A stretch of 64,000 nucleotides of DNA, from positions 53,237 to 117,236 of the forward strand of contig CAVZZA010000003.1 in the NCBI GenBank assembly GCA_963779615.1, in the 5' to 3' direction. Below, piece by piece: positions 28,443 to 35,310 of this stretch (positions are counted from its first letter, which is position 1; every line of letters starts with the position of its first letter). The translations under genes were made by a program, and so were the position numbers. This DNA comes from an uncultured Nitrososphaeraceae archaeon. Its GTDB lineage: Archaea; Thermoproteota; Nitrososphaeria; Nitrososphaerales; Nitrososphaeraceae. The notes below the pieces were generated by a model. That model searched no databases, had not been told where the DNA came from, and saw only the letters and a program-made list of their open reading frames with translations.

Positions 28443-29951
28443 ATGCAGGTAGGAAAAATCTACAGAAATTCCTCATTAGACATAACAAATGAATTAGAAA
28501 AGGCCGAAATAAAGTGGGTAAGACTAAATTTTTGCGATCCTTTGGGTTATCTTCATCAAATTTCTGTCAACAGCAAGGAGATTACAGAGGATGCATTTAA
28601 GCAAGGACTACCAAGGCTCGATGGCAGCTCCATAAAAGGATTTAAGGAGATCTATGAGTCAGATATGCTGCTCAAACCCGACCCTTCCACTTTTGCCATA
28701 TTGCCAGACTATTTTGACAAAAATCACCATCAGACTAGGGACTGCACATATCCTTCAATGGCGGCACGCATGTTTGTCGATATTTATGAGGGATTCGGTG
28801 GAAAAAGGTATTCTAGGGATAGCAGATATATCGCACAAAAAGCCGAAGAGGTATTGAATGACAAAGGCTTTGAGAAGAGTTATTGGGGGCCCGAGTTGGA
28901 ATTTTTTGTTTTCAACAAAATTACTCTCCTACCAAATCCCATGTCCTCCGTAAATTGTTCTGGTGGGTCGGGATACTCTATTGAATCCTCCGAGGCACCG
29001 TGGAACTCCTCCAATGACAGTGGGTACACCATTCCATTTAAGGGAGGCTACTTTCCTGCTCCCCCAGCAGACAGTTTGACAGATTTAAGAGATGAAGTTT
29101 CGGAAACTTTGCAAGAGTTTTTTGGAATAAGAGTTGATGCCCATCACCACGAGGTCGCGACAGCCGGACAATGTGAGATTCAGATGGTATATGATGAGCT
29201 TACACACATGGCAGACAACGTAATTACCTACAAGAAGACAGTAAAGGAAGTCGCGGCCAAACGCCATATGATTGCAAATTTTATGCCAAAACCAATAGCG
29301 CTTGATAATGGTTCTGGTATGCATGTGAGCCAGAGCTTGTGGACAAAAAGGAAGCATGGAAATGACATGAATGTGTTCTTTGATATTTCCGACGAATACG
29401 CAGAGCTAAGCCAAACCGCCCATTACTATATTGGAGGATTAATAGAGCATGCAAGGTCGCTTTGCGCTATAACAAACCCCACAACCAATTCCTACAGGAG
29501 ATTAGTCCCTGGGTATGAAGCCCCAATAAATGTGGCATGGAGTAAAATGAATAGATCGGCCAGTATAAGAATTCCTGCCCACTTCAAAAACATGGAGAGG
29601 CAGAAAAGAATAGAGTACAGAACACCTGATCCAAGTTCAAACATCTACCTTGTGGAGGCTGCGTTGTTGTTGGCAGGTCTTGATGGGATAAACAAAAAAA
29701 TTTCGCCACCAGACCACATAGATAAGGACATTTACAAACTTACAGAACAACAAAAAAGAGAAGGAGGAATCAAGAAATTACCCACTTCATTATTGGACGC
29801 TATTGAGTCTTTGGAATCAGACAATGAGTTTTTGAAGCCAGTTTTTACAAATGACTTCCTTGAAACATACTTCCAGATCAGAAAAGATGAGTATACAGCA
29901 GTTGCAGCAGTTCCCTCACCGAGAGAATTTTATATGTACGGGAATATCTAG
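28443..29951 (+). CDS. glnA: Glutamine synthetase type I
   Basis: DGSSI, GPELEFF, KGGYF, HHHEVAT, FMPKP..NGSGMH, RLVPGYEAP, NRSASIRIP, RIEYRTPDP. Confidence 0.97.
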   Translation: MQVGKIYRNSSLDITNELEKAEIKWVRLNFCDPLGYLHQISVNSKEITEDAFKQGLPRLDGSSIKGFKEIYESDMLLKPDPSTFAILPDYFDKNHHQTRDCTYPSMAARMFVDIYEGFGGKRYSRDSRYIAQKAEEVLNDKGFEKSYWGPELEFFVFNKITLLPNPMSSVNCSGGSGYSIESSEAPWNSSNDSGYTIPFKGGYFPAPPADSLTDLRDEVSETLQEFFGIRVDAHHHEVATAGQCEIQMVYDELTHMADNVITYKKTVKEVAAKRHMIANFMPKPIALDNGSGMHVSQSLWTKRKHGNDMNVFFDISDEYAELSQTAHYYIGGLIEHARSLCAITNPTTNSYRRLVPGYEAPINVAWSKMNRSASIRIPAHFKNMERQKRIEYRTPDPSSNIYLVEAALLLAGLDGINKKISPPDHIDKDIYKLTEQQKREGGIKKLPTSLLDAIESLESDNEFLKPVFTNDFLETYFQIRKDEYTAVAAVPSPREFYMYGNI

Positions 29952-30559
29952 TTAAAGACATGTCGTATCCTAAAGATGTATTGGAGACTAAAGGAAACCT
30001 TCTGAAGGAATCTTCTGCTTCTTCTTATTCTCCTATTCTAACAGACAATATTTCGAATTCTCATTATTATGACAAGACAAAGATAATCCTAGACGCAAGA
30101 AAAGCATTTGATGGGCTTATCCCATATTCAGGATTAGGCGCCAATTCAACGAATGATTATTTTTCATCTATTGATTTTATTGGCGGTGGAAAACTTAAAG
30201 CAGATGAAGACTACAGCGATGTGGATCTATCAGTAACGATTGAGAGCGTTATTTATATGTATGGGAATGTCTAGTTAAAGATATGTCGTATCCTAAAGAT
30301 GTATTGGAGATTAAAAGAAACCTTCTGAAGGAATCTTCTGCTTCTTCTAGTAGTATTTTAGATAATATTTCGAATTCTCATTATTATGACAAGACAAAGA
30401 TAATCCTAGACGCAAGAAAAGCATTTGATGGGCTTATCCCATATTCAGGATTAGGCGCCAATTCAACGAATGATTATTTTTCATCTATTGATTTTATTGG
30501 CGGTGGAAAACTTAAAGCAGATGAAGACTACAGCGATGTGGATCTATCATTAACGATTG
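29921..30559 (+). repeat. Imperfect ~320-bp tandem duplication across the glnA / glutamate synthase junction
   Basis: Unit 1 ~29921-30242, unit 2 ~30242-30559. 30047-30232 and 30364-30549 read as identical; the 5' parts differ by several substitutions and small indels. Confidence 0.95.
29960..30274 (+). CDS. Chimeric 104-aa ORF: N-terminus of the GOGAT FMN subunit fused to a copy of the GlnA C-terminal tail
   Basis: First ~94 aa nearly equal the start of 30283..31752; ends IYMYGNV* versus GlnA FYMYGNI*. Confidence 0.55.
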   Translation: MSYPKDVLETKGNLLKESSASSYSPILTDNISNSHYYDKTKIILDARKAFDGLIPYSGLGANSTNDYFSSIDFIGGGKLKADEDYSDVDLSVTIESVIYMYGNV

Positions 30560-31752
30560 GAGGACGTTACTCAAATAATGTTATAACATCAGACATACCA
30601 TTTTTTGTTTCTGGTATGAGCTATGGTTCATTGAAGCTTCCTGCAAAAATAGCATTGCACATAGCATTAAACAAACTTGCTATTGAAGATGGGATAAGAG
30701 TAATAATGAATACTGGTGAAGGTGGAGCATTGCCATGGGAAATCTATGGCTCGGATACTAAAAATAATAGTATAATGGAATATGCTGAAAGGCTGCTTAG
30801 GGAGCACAATTTAGACAGTATAGATAGAGAACAACTTTTCCAAAGGCATTATCCTTTGGTAGTTCAATATGCGTCAGGCAGATTTTGGAGAGACCCTAAC
30901 TACTTGTTGATACCGGATGCGATAGAAATCAAGATAGGTCAGGGTGCAAAAATAGGACATGGAGGAATGTTACCAGGTTCAAAGGTAACGGAGCTCGTAG
31001 CTGAGAATCGTGGAATACCTCCTTATAGATCAGCTTACTCGCCTTCAAGACATTTAGATATCTTGGGGCCTGAGGATTTGGTTGCCAAGATCCTTGAATT
31101 AAGAGAACTCACTGATTGGAAGGTTCCAATAATTGTAAAGGTAGGGGCTTCAAGAGCTTATGATGACATTCAGATAATACTCAAATCTTATGCAGATTCT
31201 GCTGCCATAGATGGAATTGTGGGAGGTACTGGTGCGGCTCCATGGGAGATTCGAGATATTGTTGGAATAAATACAATACCTTCGATAAGGTTGGGAAAAA
31301 ATGCAATAAATGATTATTATTTGAATAACGAGACAAATGAGTTTAAACTACTCGCCCATGGTGGTATTTGGGATTCGAAACGAATTGCAAAATGCATTGC
31401 TCTTGGAGCAAATGGAGTAGGCATAGGTACAGGGTTTCTCATATCAATGGGGTGTACATTGATTCAAGACTGTTATACTAATACTTGTCCTGCAGGCTTA
31501 ACCGGCTCATTTGAAAAGCTTGATATAGAATTCAGTGTAAAGAGAATAATCAATTACATTAAGGGAACAATGATCGAACTGCAAAATATTGTAGGTTCAT
31601 TAGGGAAGAAAAGAATCAAAGACCTTGGCCGAGAGGATCTTATTGCTACTGATGAAATATCAAGCATAGTATCGGGACTCTATAACAATAAGAATGTAAA
31701 GGCAGAGGATCATAGAATGTATGGAAAAAAAATTGCTGAGTTAAAAAATTGA
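30283..31752 (+). CDS. gltB: Glutamate synthase, FMN-binding subunit (archaeal split GOGAT)
   Basis: SGMSYGS, NTGEGG, QYASGRF, EIKIGQGAKIGHGGMLPG, DGIVGGTGAA, and the [3Fe-4S] motif CTLIQDCYTNTCP. Confidence 0.9.
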   Translation: MSYPKDVLEIKRNLLKESSASSSSILDNISNSHYYDKTKIILDARKAFDGLIPYSGLGANSTNDYFSSIDFIGGGKLKADEDYSDVDLSLTIGGRYSNNVITSDIPFFVSGMSYGSLKLPAKIALHIALNKLAIEDGIRVIMNTGEGGALPWEIYGSDTKNNSIMEYAERLLREHNLDSIDREQLFQRHYPLVVQYASGRFWRDPNYLLIPDAIEIKIGQGAKIGHGGMLPGSKVTELVAENRGIPPYRSAYSPSRHLDILGPEDLVAKILELRELTDWKVPIIVKVGASRAYDDIQIILKSYADSAAIDGIVGGTGAAPWEIRDIVGINTIPSIRLGKNAINDYYLNNETNEFKLLAHGGIWDSKRIAKCIALGANGVGIGTGFLISMGCTLIQDCYTNTCPAGLTGSFEKLDIEFSVKRIINYIKGTMIELQNIVGSLGKKRIKDLGREDLIATDEISSIVSGLYNNKNVKAEDHRMYGKKIAELKN

Positions 31753-32909
31753 ATCCCAAAGAGAAATTTATTATAAGGTCTTCGATCCTAGAATTAGCAG
31801 AAACTGGTACTCCTCGCAGTATTTCAATAGATGAAAAAATAAGAATGGATCACAAAGAAAGAGGAAATGAAAATACAACAACAAACATCTGGGATTGCAT
31901 AACTGCGTTGGGTGCACAATTATCAAGGCCCCCCTATGATCCATATCGGGAGATAATAAATCTTGGAATATCTGTAGGCAGAAGACAATGTCCAACTAAG
32001 GTTATTTTATCTATGCCCCTGATGATTTATGATAACGATAGGAAGATAGAAGAAGCGCCTTTGGAGGCTCTACATGTTGCATTGAATTGGCTTGCTGTTA
32101 ATGACAATATAAATTTAGGATTGGTTTCAGAAAATAGAGTAAACAATAGTAGAAAGTACCCACATTTTAAACGAATAAGCGAAAGATCAATAGGGGAGGA
32201 GGATTATGATTCTGAAGGACTTGTATTACAATACAACAGTGGCAAATCCCTACAATTTCTAACAGAGATGAGGAAAGAATTCAGCGGCCCAATTCTTGTA
32301 GAGATTGATGATGATTTTGAGAGATACATTGGATCATTGCTGGATGCAGGAGCTGATGGAATTATTGCAGATACTGTTAAAATAACAAACAAAGAGAGGT
32401 ACCAAGGAAAACATGCAGTAACAGTAATACACAAGGTACGATGCGCTATAAACCAATACTATGCTGGAAAAGAAAATGATGGTACGTTATTAATGGTTGC
32501 AGGGGACTTGAATAATACAGGCAGAATTGTAAAAGCTGCTGCATTGGGTGCGGATATTATTGGATACTCCACCAGTTTGTTGATTGCAAATGCTGCAATT
32601 CATCATGATAACCCATCCAACATAAATGCAATATCAGAAAGGATCTGTAGACACATTCAGGCCACCAAAGGAGAACTTAAAGGAGTACCTGCCGCATTAG
32701 GATACAGTAATTTCTATAACATATCACCTGCGGATTTGCGTACCTCTAGTATCGAGGCAAGTTTACAGGCGGATATTGCCATAGAAGGAGTGGATAAAAC
32801 TTATCGCCAAATAATTGAGGAATCGACAGGTGAACATGCCATAGAAGAAGGAATGGAAATTGATAAAGATAAAAATCAGAAACTTAGTTGCATATCTATT
32901 GATAAATAG
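31749..32909 (+). CDS. Degenerate paralogue of the glutamate synthase FMN-binding subunit
   Basis: GAQLSRPPYDPYRE, AGADGII and VKAAALGAD match the GltB-FMN barrel; GEGG, GQGAK, GGTG and the three-Cys cluster motif are absent. Overlaps the upstream stop (TTGA). Confidence 0.7.
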   Translation: MNPKEKFIIRSSILELAETGTPRSISIDEKIRMDHKERGNENTTTNIWDCITALGAQLSRPPYDPYREIINLGISVGRRQCPTKVILSMPLMIYDNDRKIEEAPLEALHVALNWLAVNDNINLGLVSENRVNNSRKYPHFKRISERSIGEEDYDSEGLVLQYNSGKSLQFLTEMRKEFSGPILVEIDDDFERYIGSLLDAGADGIIADTVKITNKERYQGKHAVTVIHKVRCAINQYYAGKENDGTLLMVAGDLNNTGRIVKAAALGADIIGYSTSLLIANAAIHHDNPSNINAISERICRHIQATKGELKGVPAALGYSNFYNISPADLRTSSIEASLQADIAIEGVDKTYRQIIEESTGEHAIEEGMEIDKDKNQKLSCISIDK

Positions 32910-32931
32910 TTAAGGAGGGGACGGAAGGAAC

Positions 32932-33789
32932 ATGTGTGGCATTTGCGGAATTATATTAAAAGATCACAATCCAAACTTTTCAATCGGTGCTCTGCTTTAT
33001 CAGATGATGGAAGGCCAGCAGGTAAGAGCTCAAGATAGTGCAGGCATAGCCATTTTTAATAATGGAAATAGAGGTAATAACGATTCACTATATAATCTTA
33101 CCTACCTTATGAAATCTCCTACTGGATACGAGTTGAGAGAAGAAAAAAGGCCTTTAAATGAACAAGATCGACGTGCTTCCAGATTAATCAAGGATGATCG
33201 GGTTTCTATAATAGGTTGTTCAAAAGAAATGAAGTTGGTCAAAGATGTAGGCCTTGTAAGAGATCTTGATAAAAAATATGATATAAAATCAATGCAAGGA
33301 TCTCACGGTATTGGACATTTAAGAATAGCAACGAGCAGTAGAGTTGACATGCATAATGCCCATCCATTCAGTACTACAGTCATGCCCGATATAGCAGTTG
33401 TGCATAATGGAGAAATCACAAATTATTCCAAATTAAAGAATTCGCTTGAGATTCAAGGATACCCTTTCTATTCTAATTGTGATTCAGAGGTCATAGCTGT
33501 TTTTCTTGCTGACCAGTTGTTAAAGCATGGAGACATAGAAAGGGCACATAATGAATTTATTCAAAAAGCCGATGGGCCATTTACCTATATTGCTGCTACA
33601 AATCATTCATTATCATTGATAAGGGATAGATTTGGAACAAGAAAGGGGATTGTAGGATACAATCCAGGAGGAGAGGGCCATCCTGCATTCTGGGCAATGG
33701 CAACGGATCTATCTGCATTAGATATTGTCGGAGCTAACGAAGATGTGAAAGCAGCGTCACCAGGCAAATCACTAATTTTCACAGTATAA
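32932..33789 (+). CDS. Glutamate synthase, class II glutamine amidotransferase subunit
   Basis: N-terminal nucleophile MCGICG, R-x-QDSAG, GHLRIAT, HPF, HNGEITNY, DSEVI; ggaggg SD upstream. Confidence 0.9.
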   Translation: MCGICGIILKDHNPNFSIGALLYQMMEGQQVRAQDSAGIAIFNNGNRGNNDSLYNLTYLMKSPTGYELREEKRPLNEQDRRASRLIKDDRVSIIGCSKEMKLVKDVGLVRDLDKKYDIKSMQGSHGIGHLRIATSSRVDMHNAHPFSTTVMPDIAVVHNGEITNYSKLKNSLEIQGYPFYSNCDSEVIAVFLADQLLKHGDIERAHNEFIQKADGPFTYIAATNHSLSLIRDRFGTRKGIVGYNPGGEGHPAFWAMATDLSALDIVGANEDVKAASPGKSLIFTV

Positions 33790-33829
33790 TAAATAAATTA
33801 ATAAAGCCATATCTAAAAAACAAAGACAA

Positions 33830-34759
33830 ATGTGTTATACGTTAGATATCGATGAATTACGAGCAATAGTAAAGGACATAGGCTCAAAGGTATCTAATCC
33901 AGATGCACAATTTGAAAGTGTCAACAACGCTTTTGAGAAGAATTTTGGAACAAAACTTCCTTATGGATTAAAACGCGCATCTATAGAAAAATTTGGGGAT
34001 GTTGCAAGTTCTCCCCTAATAATGGAAAGGGCAATTAACTCCATAATAAAAAAAAAGGTGGCAGCGGGTGAAACTAAAATCATACTAAAAAATCCAAAAG
34101 CCCTTTACAGAATAGGGATACTTGGTTATGATGAGACTATAAAATTAGACATGACAGTGGAAGGAAATGTTGGCAATTTTTTTGGCGCATTTTGCAACTT
34201 TGATGGAACCTGGATAGTTAATGGAAACGCCGAGAATGGATTGGCGGACAAGGGGTACAAAGGAAAAATAATTGTGGAAGGGTTTGCCACAGAACTTGCA
34301 TGCCAAAACAATCAAGCAACCAAATTCAGTAATGGTGTCGATCTCTTGATTAAAAAAGGGTGTATGGAGAGAGCTATGGGTCAAGCCAGGGGAGGAAGGT
34401 TGGTAACTTTTGGCGCAGGATACAATTCTGGTCTGTACATGTCAGGGGGAGTATTGCTTAATTTGGGCCTACCGGGAGAACTGTTTGGCCCTGGAATGGT
34501 TGGTGGCGTTATTTATTCTCCTGAAGGAACTACTGCAGCAGACGGTGCGGTTATCAATAAATTAAAGGTGGAAGATTATTCAATTATTAAAGAAACACTA
34601 CGGGTATTTGAAAATGAGTTACGGATAGAGCAACTAGATAATTTATCCATGGAAAACCCGACAGTGTATTTAACCAACAATGTTATTAAAGATAATCAAA
34701 AGTATAACATAAGTGACTTTATCAAAATAGTCCCAAATATAACCAATTCTCATAACTAG
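33830..34759 (+). CDS. Glutamate synthase, GXGXG (beta-helix) subunit
   Basis: GNVGNFFGAF, GNAENGLAD, GQARGG, GAGYNSGLYMSGG, GPGMVGG repeats. Confidence 0.85.
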   Translation: MCYTLDIDELRAIVKDIGSKVSNPDAQFESVNNAFEKNFGTKLPYGLKRASIEKFGDVASSPLIMERAINSIIKKKVAAGETKIILKNPKALYRIGILGYDETIKLDMTVEGNVGNFFGAFCNFDGTWIVNGNAENGLADKGYKGKIIVEGFATELACQNNQATKFSNGVDLLIKKGCMERAMGQARGGRLVTFGAGYNSGLYMSGGVLLNLGLPGELFGPGMVGGVIYSPEGTTAADGAVINKLKVEDYSIIKETLRVFENELRIEQLDNLSMENPTVYLTNNVIKDNQKYNISDFIKIVPNITNSHN

Positions 34760-34871: not shown

Positions 34872-35310
34872 TCATAACAGCCGAAAATCCTCTTTCACAG
34901 TAATCAAAACTATATGTGTATTGGTTCTGTCAACATATGGTAACGATAGGTCCCTCTTGACAAAGTCACTTAATTCCCTTCGATTCCTAAATTTAGCAAC
35001 TATTATCATATCCGTCAATCCAGTGATATCATAAACTGCACAAACATTTGGGAGCTTTGAAATGTGTTTCTCAACATCGTTTATTTTATTTTTGATTGCA
35101 GTTATTTCAATTACCGCCGTCAAATCAAATCCTAACTTTACATGGTCCACTATTGCAGAATAAGATTTTATGATATTGTCTTTTTCCAATCTTGATATCC
35201 TGTTAAGTACCTGTGGGTGGAGAGACCCCTATTTCAAATGCTATTTTTCGGTAAGAACTCCTAGCATCTGCCAATAGCCTTTTTAATATCTTTGTGTCTG
35301 TCTCATCCAT
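34872..35310 (-). pseudogene. Lrp/AsnC-family transcriptional regulator with a +1 frameshift in the HTH
   Basis: From ATG at 35310: MDETDTKILKRLLADARSSYRKIAFEIGVSPPT; an extra G at ~35210-35211 precedes VLNRISRLEKDNIIKSY...; RAM domain intact (track ORF 34872..35189). Confidence 0.85.

Follow-up and report, generated by a model that had tools for sequence, protein, structure and literature searches.

A cofactor-less paralogue of the FMN subunit as a candidate central-domain-like fourth subunit of a split archaeal glutamate synthase

What is the role of an intact gene that lies directly behind the catalytic flavin mononucleotide (FMN) subunit of an archaeal glutamate synthase (GOGAT), encodes a copy of the same barrel and has lost the cofactor motifs of that barrel? 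The gene in question, here named CEN-B, occupies positions 31749–32909 on the + strand of a 64,000-nucleotide stretch of contig CAVZZA010000003.1 from an uncultured, Nitrosocosmicus-like archaeon of the Nitrososphaeraceae (hereafter the window, which means this whole stretch). An earlier note, made from the letters and translations of the window, had described CEN-B as an intact full-length open reading frame (ORF) with GltB-barrel landmarks but without GEGG, GQGAK, GGTG and the [3Fe-4S] cysteines, whose start overlaps the upstream stop, and had interpreted it as a retained pseudo-enzyme tied to the active FMN subunit. Taking all parts of the explanation together, we consider it likely that CEN-B is a non-catalytic pseudo-enzyme barrel that arose by tandem duplication and fills the role of the GltB central domain in a split GOGAT.

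CEN-B and the neighbouring FMN/[3Fe-4S] subunit (FMN-B) are true paralogues, CEN-B having lost the cofactor motifs, and the sequence description in the earlier note was confirmed by BLASTP and by an L-INS-i alignment. The TTG start of CEN-B (31749–31751) overlaps the TGA stop of FMN-B (31750–31752) within the four-nucleotide sequence TTGA at 31749–31752, and this start is supported because the homologues share the same N-terminus, MN..EKF.IR..ILELA. BLASTP aligned the two neighbours collinearly, residues 171–330 of CEN-B with 270–453 of the FMN subunit (E 1e-9) and residues 42–166 with 60–200 (E 2e-4), and the family profile matched FMN subunits at E-values of 1e-11 to 1e-18. In the L-INS-i alignment, NTGEGG of the FMN subunit stands opposite VS--ENR in CEN-B; the stretch AKIGHGG...SPSRHLDIL (FMN residues 222–264, comprising the AK of GQGAK and the following loop) is deleted, with LVLQYNSG facing IEIKIGQG; GGTGAAP lies opposite ITNK/ADTV; and the FMN loop CTLIQDCYTNTCP is replaced by AAIHHDNPSN. 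The loop with the cysteines of the [3Fe-4S] cluster (C-x5-C-x4-C-P) is deleted as well, and the family has no invariant cysteine column. GEGG, GQGAK(P)G.GG and GGTGA(A/S)P are replaced or deleted in all family members. A total of 339 homologues were found at E <= 1e-3, from Nitrososphaeraceae and there mostly from Candidatus Nitrosocosmicus, and they share invariant blocks including GAQLSRPPYDPYRE and TKGE..G..A.GYS, from which we conclude that the conservation of CEN-B is far above chance.

Domain libraries did not capture this relationship. Pfam and NCBIfam scans of CEN-B gave no usable assignment. The synthase model PF01645 reached 16.1 bits (E 0.0067) over residues 246–282 only, below its gathering threshold of 20.4 bits, and gave merely weak matches in 21 of 25 family members. 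The central-domain model PF04898 (threshold 22.8 bits) had no match on CEN-B even at E <= 10 and none in its genome; seven of the 25 members matched it weakly (best E 6e-4). Sequence and profile searches of the PDB with CEN-B returned TIM-barrel matches at chance level only and no GltS entry.

CEN-B is a real, conserved and expressed gene. Pairwise ratios of nonsynonymous to synonymous substitution rates (dN/dS), calculated against relatives with unsaturated dS, were 0.09–0.22 for CEN-B, 0.075–0.16 for the FMN subunit, 0.04–0.17 for the glutaminase, 0.07–0.12 for the GXGXG subunit and 0.03–0.05 for glnA. The gene is thus under purifying, somewhat relaxed selection and evolves faster than its operon neighbours. 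Among 151 genomes of the family, 23 have CEN-B; the FMN subunit occurs in 22, all of them among these 23, and in the extra CEN-B-positive genome the ORF is cut at the contig end. The frame of CEN-B is intact in 22 of the 23 genomes, the exception being a single in-frame TAA in genome G148. The FMN and CEN-B genes overlap or abut in relatives by 4 nt (L001), 11 nt (L003), 0 nt (L043) and 23 nt (L047). The order FMN / CEN-B / glutaminase / GXGXG recurs in Nitrososphaeraceae, on a contig with a Woesearchaeota-like NrdR and on another archaeal contig, where CEN-B is only 26% identical. Scans of genome and metagenome contigs with this distant subgroup returned Nitrososphaeraceae loci only, and the gene context of the subgroup was obtained by exact look-ups. 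Contigs from soil and rhizosphere metatranscriptomes, 95–99% identical to the window, cover the operon and cross both junctions of CEN-B (31703–32173, 32227–33051 and 32227–33068); they are assembled contigs with no strand information, in which DNA carry-over is possible. Selection and synteny were two of the checks that the earlier note had proposed, and both agree with it: the dN/dS values speak for a retained pseudo-enzyme, and the gene order conserved across archaeal phyla, the kept stop/start overlap and the 22/22 co-occurrence uphold the tie to the active FMN subunit.

Signs of local decay were also observed. In some Nitrososphaeraceae metagenome-assembled genomes the glutaminase gene is split into two ORFs of 137 and 145 residues (L003/L013, 8247–9045), and at L016 the glutaminase match is limited to residues 149–285 and that of the FMN gene to 103–348. 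In parts of the family, decay of the operon may be under way, in keeping with its patchy distribution (23/151). A second, fragmentary CEN-B copy in genome G078 (C6:200208–200570; profile positions 267–382) is interrupted by four in-frame stops, at a great distance from the intact operon that this genome also has, and is a pseudogene remnant.

A cofactor-less copy of the FMN barrel has a precedent within GltB itself. The central domain of GltB (PF04898) was classified by the SCOP curators as a duplicated FMN domain minus three beta/alpha units (PMC5011417). It and the synthase domain jointly line the ammonia tunnel, and a recent review left its origin open between duplication of the FMN barrel and an independent origin (PMC8097209); its role in GltS was also treated elsewhere (PMC5775586). 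When the family profile was aligned by hhalign with full-length E. coli GltB, residues 501–621 of the central domain were chosen (prob 81%, E 1.2e-5), and against isolated E. coli GltB segments the central domain scored prob 85% (E 6e-6) and the FMN domain prob 3%. The segment GAQLSRPPYDPYRE...ISVGRR aligned with E. coli GltB 501–540, and the PF04898 block FAQVTNPPIDPxRE with the S(I/V)GR strand region is thus present in CEN-B. CEN-B also shares with the central domain of GltB and ferredoxin-dependent GOGAT (residues 423–780 of Azospirillum GltS alpha) its nature as a barrel that descends from the FMN/synthase barrel and has no cofactor, the AQ-x-[ST]-[RN]-P-[PS]-x-D-P-x-R-E block, the beta7-alpha7-beta8 'LGA' piece and membership in an enzyme of four modules (glutaminase, central, FMN and GXGXG). 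Unlike that domain, CEN-B is free-standing, is encoded after rather than before the FMN module, scores below the Pfam threshold, falls outside the central domains in maximum-likelihood (ML) trees and seems to retain the full set of eight strands, while three beta/alpha units are missing from the bacterial domain (PMC5011417).

The closest counterparts of the arrangement were found in other archaea. A profile search of 1.84 billion representative proteins gave only 77 matches, among them archaeal proteins of 700–790 residues in which PF01645 is followed by PF04898 above threshold; the genes of these FMN+central fusions are followed downstream by a glutaminase+GXGXG fusion gene. The CEN-B family aligned with the C-terminal PF04898 domains of the fusions over 280 columns (prob 99.3%, E 2.9e-20). 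Other Thermoproteota encode stand-alone, Pfam-recognised Glu_syn_central subunits of 318–345 residues that overlap the upstream FMN stop and are again followed by a glutaminase+GXGXG fusion, and one such subunit matched the family at prob 97.8% (E 1.3e-12). These split enzymes (stand-alone L072 3089–4060 and L074 4080–5036; fusions P0157 and P0162) therefore resemble the locus in the window in full-length profile similarity (prob 97.8–99.3%) and in the succession of an FMN gene, an overlapping central-like gene and the glutaminase and GXGXG modules. They differ in that their central subunits are recognised by PF04898 (35–67 bits) and cluster with bacterial central domains, in that their glutaminase and GXGXG modules are fused, and in that their FMN partners belong to a bacterial-like FMN clade, whereas the FMN partner in the window belongs to the classical-archaeal clade. 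By plain BLAST, the free-standing archaeal central-type proteins matched the canonical central domain and FMN barrels alike, which supports a duplication origin of the central domain.

An arrangement in which a central-type subunit is encoded separately, downstream of the FMN subunit, thus already exists in archaea, though it has been little noticed. In the earlier note, a four-subunit GOGAT was taken as an architecture not known to be described. This claim did not survive, as a cofactor-less FMN-barrel copy is a standard part of GltB (PMC5011417, PMC8097209) and stand-alone central subunits overlapping the upstream FMN subunit supply the precedent in other Thermoproteota. The GOGAT of Ca. Nitrosocosmicus arcticus Kfb (NARC_80135–80138) and N. 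oleophilus MY3 (NMY3_03179–03182) is, moreover, the same four-gene cassette; four subunits were already counted in Ca. N. arcticus, and the second gene was not analysed there (Alves et al. 2019, PMC6657660). The N. arcticus protein (P0041) is 69% identical to CEN-B and is a 'hypothetical protein' in NCBI. Such database entries read hypothetical or 'glutamate synthase domain small domain protein' and leave the cofactor loss, the relation to the central domain and the origin unaddressed. By analogy with GltB, CEN-B most likely does the job of the enzyme's non-catalytic central domain.

Which part of the barrel could carry this job is indicated by the distribution of its most conserved segment. 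GAQLSRPPYDPYRE corresponds to FAQVTNPPIDPLRE of the E. coli GltB central domain, and its equivalent in classical archaeal FMN subunits is PAQTSRPPIDxYRE. In all classical archaeal FMN subunits examined (among them L075, L067, L069–L071; P0211, P0224 and P0252), PAQ[TVI]SRPPIDxYREPC stands just before the first barrel strand; the carriers include those of Archaeoglobales, Methanothermobacter and Altiarchaeota as well as the GXGXG-Fer4-FMN proteins of Bathyarchaeia and Thermoproteota. FMN subunits like P0135, a Pacearchaeota-like protein whose operon has no central-like partner, carry a variant of the segment. FMN subunits or domains that do have a central-like partner are without it in the window, on the Woesearchaeota-like contig, in Thermoproteota, in the fusions and in bacteria. 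Exactly one barrel bears the segment in every system examined, which is the pattern of complementary degeneration after duplication. On this distribution the segment is ancestral, and the partnered FMN subunits have lost it. The same pattern suggests that this segment is what the central-type barrel essentially contributes. Since catalytic archaeal FMN subunits without a central domain carry the segment, it is by itself no marker of central domains, and PF04898 cross-matches such subunits, which accounts for their precomputed PF04898 matches. The PF04898 control accordingly gave a signal in all 14 control genomes, including that of M. jannaschii, and was uninformative.

The classical archaeal glutamate synthase of M. 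jannaschii, Archaeoglobus and Methanothermobacter, in which a [4Fe-4S]x2 + FMN subunit is joined by a separate glutaminase and GXGXG subunit, is likewise a split enzyme. The FMN subunit and CEN-B of the window both have their closest relative in its FMN barrel, which has the AQxSRPPIDxYRE block in common with CEN-B. The classical enzyme differs in having no central-like subunit, in bearing the block on the catalytic FMN subunit itself and in its N-terminal ferredoxin domain, which is absent here (PMC2483277).

We inferred ML trees from 53 and 62 sequences and evaluated a single clade of all central-like barrels with the approximately unbiased (AU) test. In the 53-sequence tree, the bacterial central domains, the stand-alone Thermoproteota subunits and the fused central domains formed one clade (99/96). 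The CEN-B family (100/100) grouped instead with its partner FMN subunits and P0135 (99/97), within the classical archaeal FMN clade (100/99). In the 62-sequence tree, the CEN-B family and the partner FMN subunits were sisters (90/66), and the Pacearchaeota-like group branched outside them (100/99). An insertion of 5–6 residues after the ALN.LA helix is common only to the CEN-B family, the partner FMN-B subunits and the P0135-like proteins. The P0135 operon consists of FMN, glutaminase and GXGXG genes with no central-like gene, as would be expected of an operon whose first gene had yet to be tandemly duplicated. On these grounds, the CEN-B family of Nitrososphaeraceae and Woesearchaeota-like archaea probably stems from a duplication separate from that of the canonical central domain, and the same division of labour would then have arisen a second time, by convergence. 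On balance we favour the wider view that glutamate synthase acquired a cofactor-less 'central' barrel twice, here from the tandem-duplicated FMN gene of an operon for FMN, glutamine amidotransferase and GXGXG subunits, followed by complementary degeneration that mirrors the older event. In this view the FMN copy retained FMN, the Fe-S cluster and the substrate loops and gave up the AQxSRPPxDxYRE segment, while CEN-B retained the segment and gave up all cofactor loops. As far as the searched literature shows, the likely separate origin of the family and the complementary pattern in which the segment is distributed are new.

Two features of the FMN subunits themselves were observed alongside. 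Residues 158–188 of the FMN subunit in the window (30283–31752) form an insertion of ~31 residues, DTKNNSIMEYAERLLREHNLDSIDREQLFQR, which is confined to FMN subunits partnering the CEN-B family; classical archaeal, Thermoproteota, fused and bacterial FMN domains do not have it. It might act in docking, as an element specific to this lineage. The window-type subunit has three cysteines in the pattern C-x5-C-x4-C-P, as in bacterial [3Fe-4S] GltB, and its nearest relatives (the P0135-like and classical archaeal subunits, compared in P0135 and L075) have four, C-x2-C-x2-C-x4-C-P. The four-cysteine pattern of the P0135-like and classical archaeal subunits suggests a [4Fe-4S] cluster, and the duplication may have been accompanied by a change of cluster type. 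The second weak PF01645 match in the genome (L005) is a type 2 isopentenyl diphosphate isomerase (IDI-2) and is unrelated.

To obtain a structural view of CEN-B, we used AlphaFold2 (AF2). A first model from 22 close sequences had a predicted local distance difference test score (pLDDT) of 60 and gave a weak fold search; it was replaced with a model from a more diverse alignment, which reached a pLDDT of 82 and a predicted template modelling score (pTM) of 0.79. This model has eight strands (91–94, 124–127, 139–143, 157–161, 182–185, 204–208, 247–251 and 270–273), no helices after strands 2 and 3, and a helical region at the C-terminal end. The best Foldseek matches were FMN-dependent TIM barrels, namely IDI-2, glycolate oxidase and flavocytochrome b2 (template modelling scores of 0.5–0.67). 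Comparison with the bacterial central domains, which are also without whole beta/alpha units, suggests that CEN-B is missing only the functional loops.

CEN-B lies in a tight operon for glutamine synthetase and glutamate synthase (GS-GOGAT) on the + strand at 28443–34759, with the following features:

28443–29951, + strand: glnA, type I glutamine synthetase, the first gene of the operon (TIGR00653, 530 bits against a cut-off of 429; PF00120/PF03951)
29960–30274, + strand: 104-residue ORF resulting from a local tandem duplication
30283–31752, + strand: FMN-B, FMN/[3Fe-4S] barrel, the catalytic synthase subunit (PF01645, E 2.9e-80)
31749–32909, + strand: CEN-B, cofactor-less barrel of 386 residues, the proposed central-domain-like fourth subunit
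31911–31952, + strand: codons for GAQLSRPPYDPYRE (CEN-B residues 55–68), the most conserved block (from the translation, invariant columns and cross-group alignment)
32932–33789, + strand: class II, N-terminal nucleophile (Ntn) glutamine amidotransferase subunit with the N-terminus MCGICGI (PF13522/PF13537/PF13230)
33830–34759, + strand: GXGXG beta-helix subunit, counterpart of the GltB C-terminal domain (PF01493, E 6e-12; weak match to GltB 1269–1432)

All four GltB-type modules are thus encoded together: an Ntn glutaminase whose nucleophilic Cys directly follows the initiator Met, an FMN/[3Fe-4S] barrel, a GXGXG beta-helix and the central-like barrel. The translation of FMN-B contains GEGG, GQGAK, GGTG and C-x5-C-x4-C-P and is without the AQxSRPPxDxYRE segment and an N-terminal ferredoxin domain. 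The position of glnA 5' of the GOGAT genes is kept in Nitrososphaeraceae relatives. The translations and a Pfam scan revealed neither GltD nor a ferredoxin domain in the operon. N-methylglutamate synthase (MgsABC), whose three GltB-like subunits are encoded beside GmaS and N-methylglutamate dehydrogenase genes, was considered and rejected: upstream lies a gene for a genuine type I GlnA (TIGR00653, 530 bits), mgd genes are not nearby, the FMN subunit retains its cluster cysteines and the glutaminase retains Cys2.

We propose that tandem duplication of the gene for the adjacent FMN/[3Fe-4S] subunit gave rise to CEN-B as a non-catalytic (beta/alpha)8-barrel pseudo-enzyme, which would complete, as its fourth polypeptide, a glutamate synthase of the GltB type that is fully split, and would be co-transcribed with glutamine synthetase. 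By homology and by analogy with the single-chain enzyme, CEN-B, the FMN subunit, the Ntn glutaminase and the GXGXG beta-helix would assemble into the four-module GltB architecture, in which CEN-B may pack between the Ntn glutaminase and the synthase barrel as the central domain does in GltB. There it could supply AQLSRPPYDPYRE, lost by the catalytic partner, to the interface and to the ammonia tunnel between the two active sites. The tunnel role is proposed because the homologous GltB segment lies in the domain that lines the ammonia tunnel. CEN-B itself would be expected to bind neither FMN nor an Fe-S cluster. The physical assembly with the other three subunits, the part in tunnelling or coupling and the absence of a bound ligand are all inferred.

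CEN-B could instead be a fast-evolving orthologue of the canonical GltB central domain with the same function, descended from a single ancient duplication, in which case its grouping with FMN subunits would be an artefact of gene conversion, rate or alignment. Orthology would account for the AQxxRPPxDPxRE block and the full-length profile similarity shared with Pfam-recognised central domains, and for the common gene position directly downstream of the FMN subunit. Several observations weigh against our account, and some of them favour orthology directly. The N-terminal half alone weakly recovered all central-like barrels together (support 59). The phylogenetic signal resides mainly in the C-terminal half, so that an old gene conversion from the neighbour is possible. 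The three functional loops deleted in CEN-B are also deleted, with the same alignment boundaries, in the archaeal canonical-type central subunits, and common descent followed by gene conversion from the neighbour is therefore possible. Both central-like groups sit on long branches. The region of the GAQLSRPPYDPYRE motif was modelled at moderate confidence (pLDDT 56–68), the barrel of CEN-B looks more complete than the bacterial central domain, with the invariant AGDLNNTG and GYSTS after strands 7 and 8 leaving room for a ligand site, and an electron donor module (GltD or a ferredoxin domain) is missing among the operon genes. Orthology is nevertheless opposed by the AU test, which rejected a single central-like clade with 53 sequences (p 0.0036), with the L-INS-i alignment (p 0.020 for the whole and p 0.019 for the C-terminal half) and with 62 sequences (p 0.0046). 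Long-branch attraction, moreover, would join the two central-like groups rather than separate them, and the shared block is ancestral to the catalytic archaeal FMN domains and so no marker of a central domain. The insertion common only to the CEN-B family, FMN-B and the P0135-like subunits and the lack of a central-like gene in the nearest outgroup operon also argue for a separate duplication. We hold the orthologue explanation to be possible but doubtful.

The room for a ligand site raises the question of whether CEN-B is a regulatory subunit whose barrel still binds a ligand with a phosphate group or of amino-acid type (a flavin, 2-oxoglutarate, glutamine or glutamate) and tunes GOGAT. The eight predicted strands, the fold resembling FMN-dependent oxidases and IDI-2, and the invariant residues G252-D253, N255, G258, G272 and S274-T275-S276, located where relatives bind the FMN phosphate, are consistent with such a function. 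The segments of GltS that contact isoalloxazine and substrate (GEGG, the GQGAK loop and GGTG) are, however, deleted or replaced, the strongest conservation lies in the N-terminal segment and the C-terminal helices rather than at the mouth of the barrel, and the canonical central domain is without a known ligand (PMC8097209), which makes ligand binding improbable. We regard as a little more improbable still that CEN-B is an adaptor docking ferredoxin or another reductant near the [3Fe-4S] cluster of the FMN subunit in place of GltD or a ferredoxin domain. An operon without either donor would suit an adaptor, and in bacterial GltS a role in electron transfer was proposed for Met479 of the central domain (PMC8097209), but CEN-B has no redox motif and no conserved cysteine, the central domain is present in single-chain ferredoxin- and NADPH-dependent enzymes alike, regardless of the donor, and specific sequence evidence for an adaptor was not found here. 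The earlier note had offered scaffold, ligand sensor and ferredoxin dock as roles; a scaffold with an ammonia-tunnel function is the best reading by analogy with the central domain, and sensor and dock are left without specific support. It is highly improbable that CEN-B stands outside glutamate synthase, as an unrelated enzyme or a decaying duplicate that merely resides in the operon. CEN-B does lack a Pfam or NCBIfam assignment and evolves faster than its neighbours, but its dN/dS of 0.09–0.22, the intact frame in 22/23 genomes, the strict co-occurrence with the FMN subunit, the stop/start overlap conserved across archaeal phyla and the fusion of homologous domains to FMN subunits in other archaea contradict this explanation.

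The CEN-B family provides a natural experiment in which a central-like module is a separate, removable subunit, so that it becomes directly testable whether ammonia channelling and glutaminase–synthase coupling require the module. If the central barrel was indeed acquired twice, the segment would be the indispensable contribution of the central domain, which could be tested on a removable polypeptide, and pseudo-enzyme evolution would offer a clean example of convergence in the repeated duplication with complementary degeneration. In practical terms, hundreds of 'hypothetical proteins' in Nitrososphaeraceae and DPANN genomes could be annotated as GOGAT central-like subunits, and GS-GOGAT calls in ammonia-oxidising archaea should demand a CEN-B gene.

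Further observations concern the surroundings of the operon genes. A tandem duplication of ~320 bp (window 29929–30559, copies 95% identical) runs from the final 23 nt of glnA across the spacer into the FMN-subunit gene, of which it takes in the first ~280 nt, and the resulting ORF at 29960–30274 encodes a GOGAT head and a GlnA-like tail (YMYGNV). In close relatives (L032 and L051) the gap between glnA and the FMN gene is only ~10 nt, and the metatranscriptome contigs have loose ends at positions 29950, 30210 and 30527, so that the duplication is either particular to the strain or a feature of the assembly. In one Nitrososphaeraceae genome (L003 1–3648, − strand), genes for electron transfer flavoprotein (ETF) alpha and beta and for a flavoprotein like ETF-quinone oxidoreductase (ETF-QO)/FixC lie divergently upstream of glnA-GOGAT, a possible hint at electron supply; ETF and ETF-QO genes were not seen beside the operon in the window. 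Downstream of the operon, a 105-residue ORF (window 34872–35189, − strand) encodes the ligand-binding (RAM) domain of an Lrp/AsnC protein alone. Two relatives (L001 and L002) carry a full AsnC-type regulator of 150 residues with helix-turn-helix and RAM domains, divergent and upstream of glnA, and the regulator in the window may have been truncated or rearranged locally.

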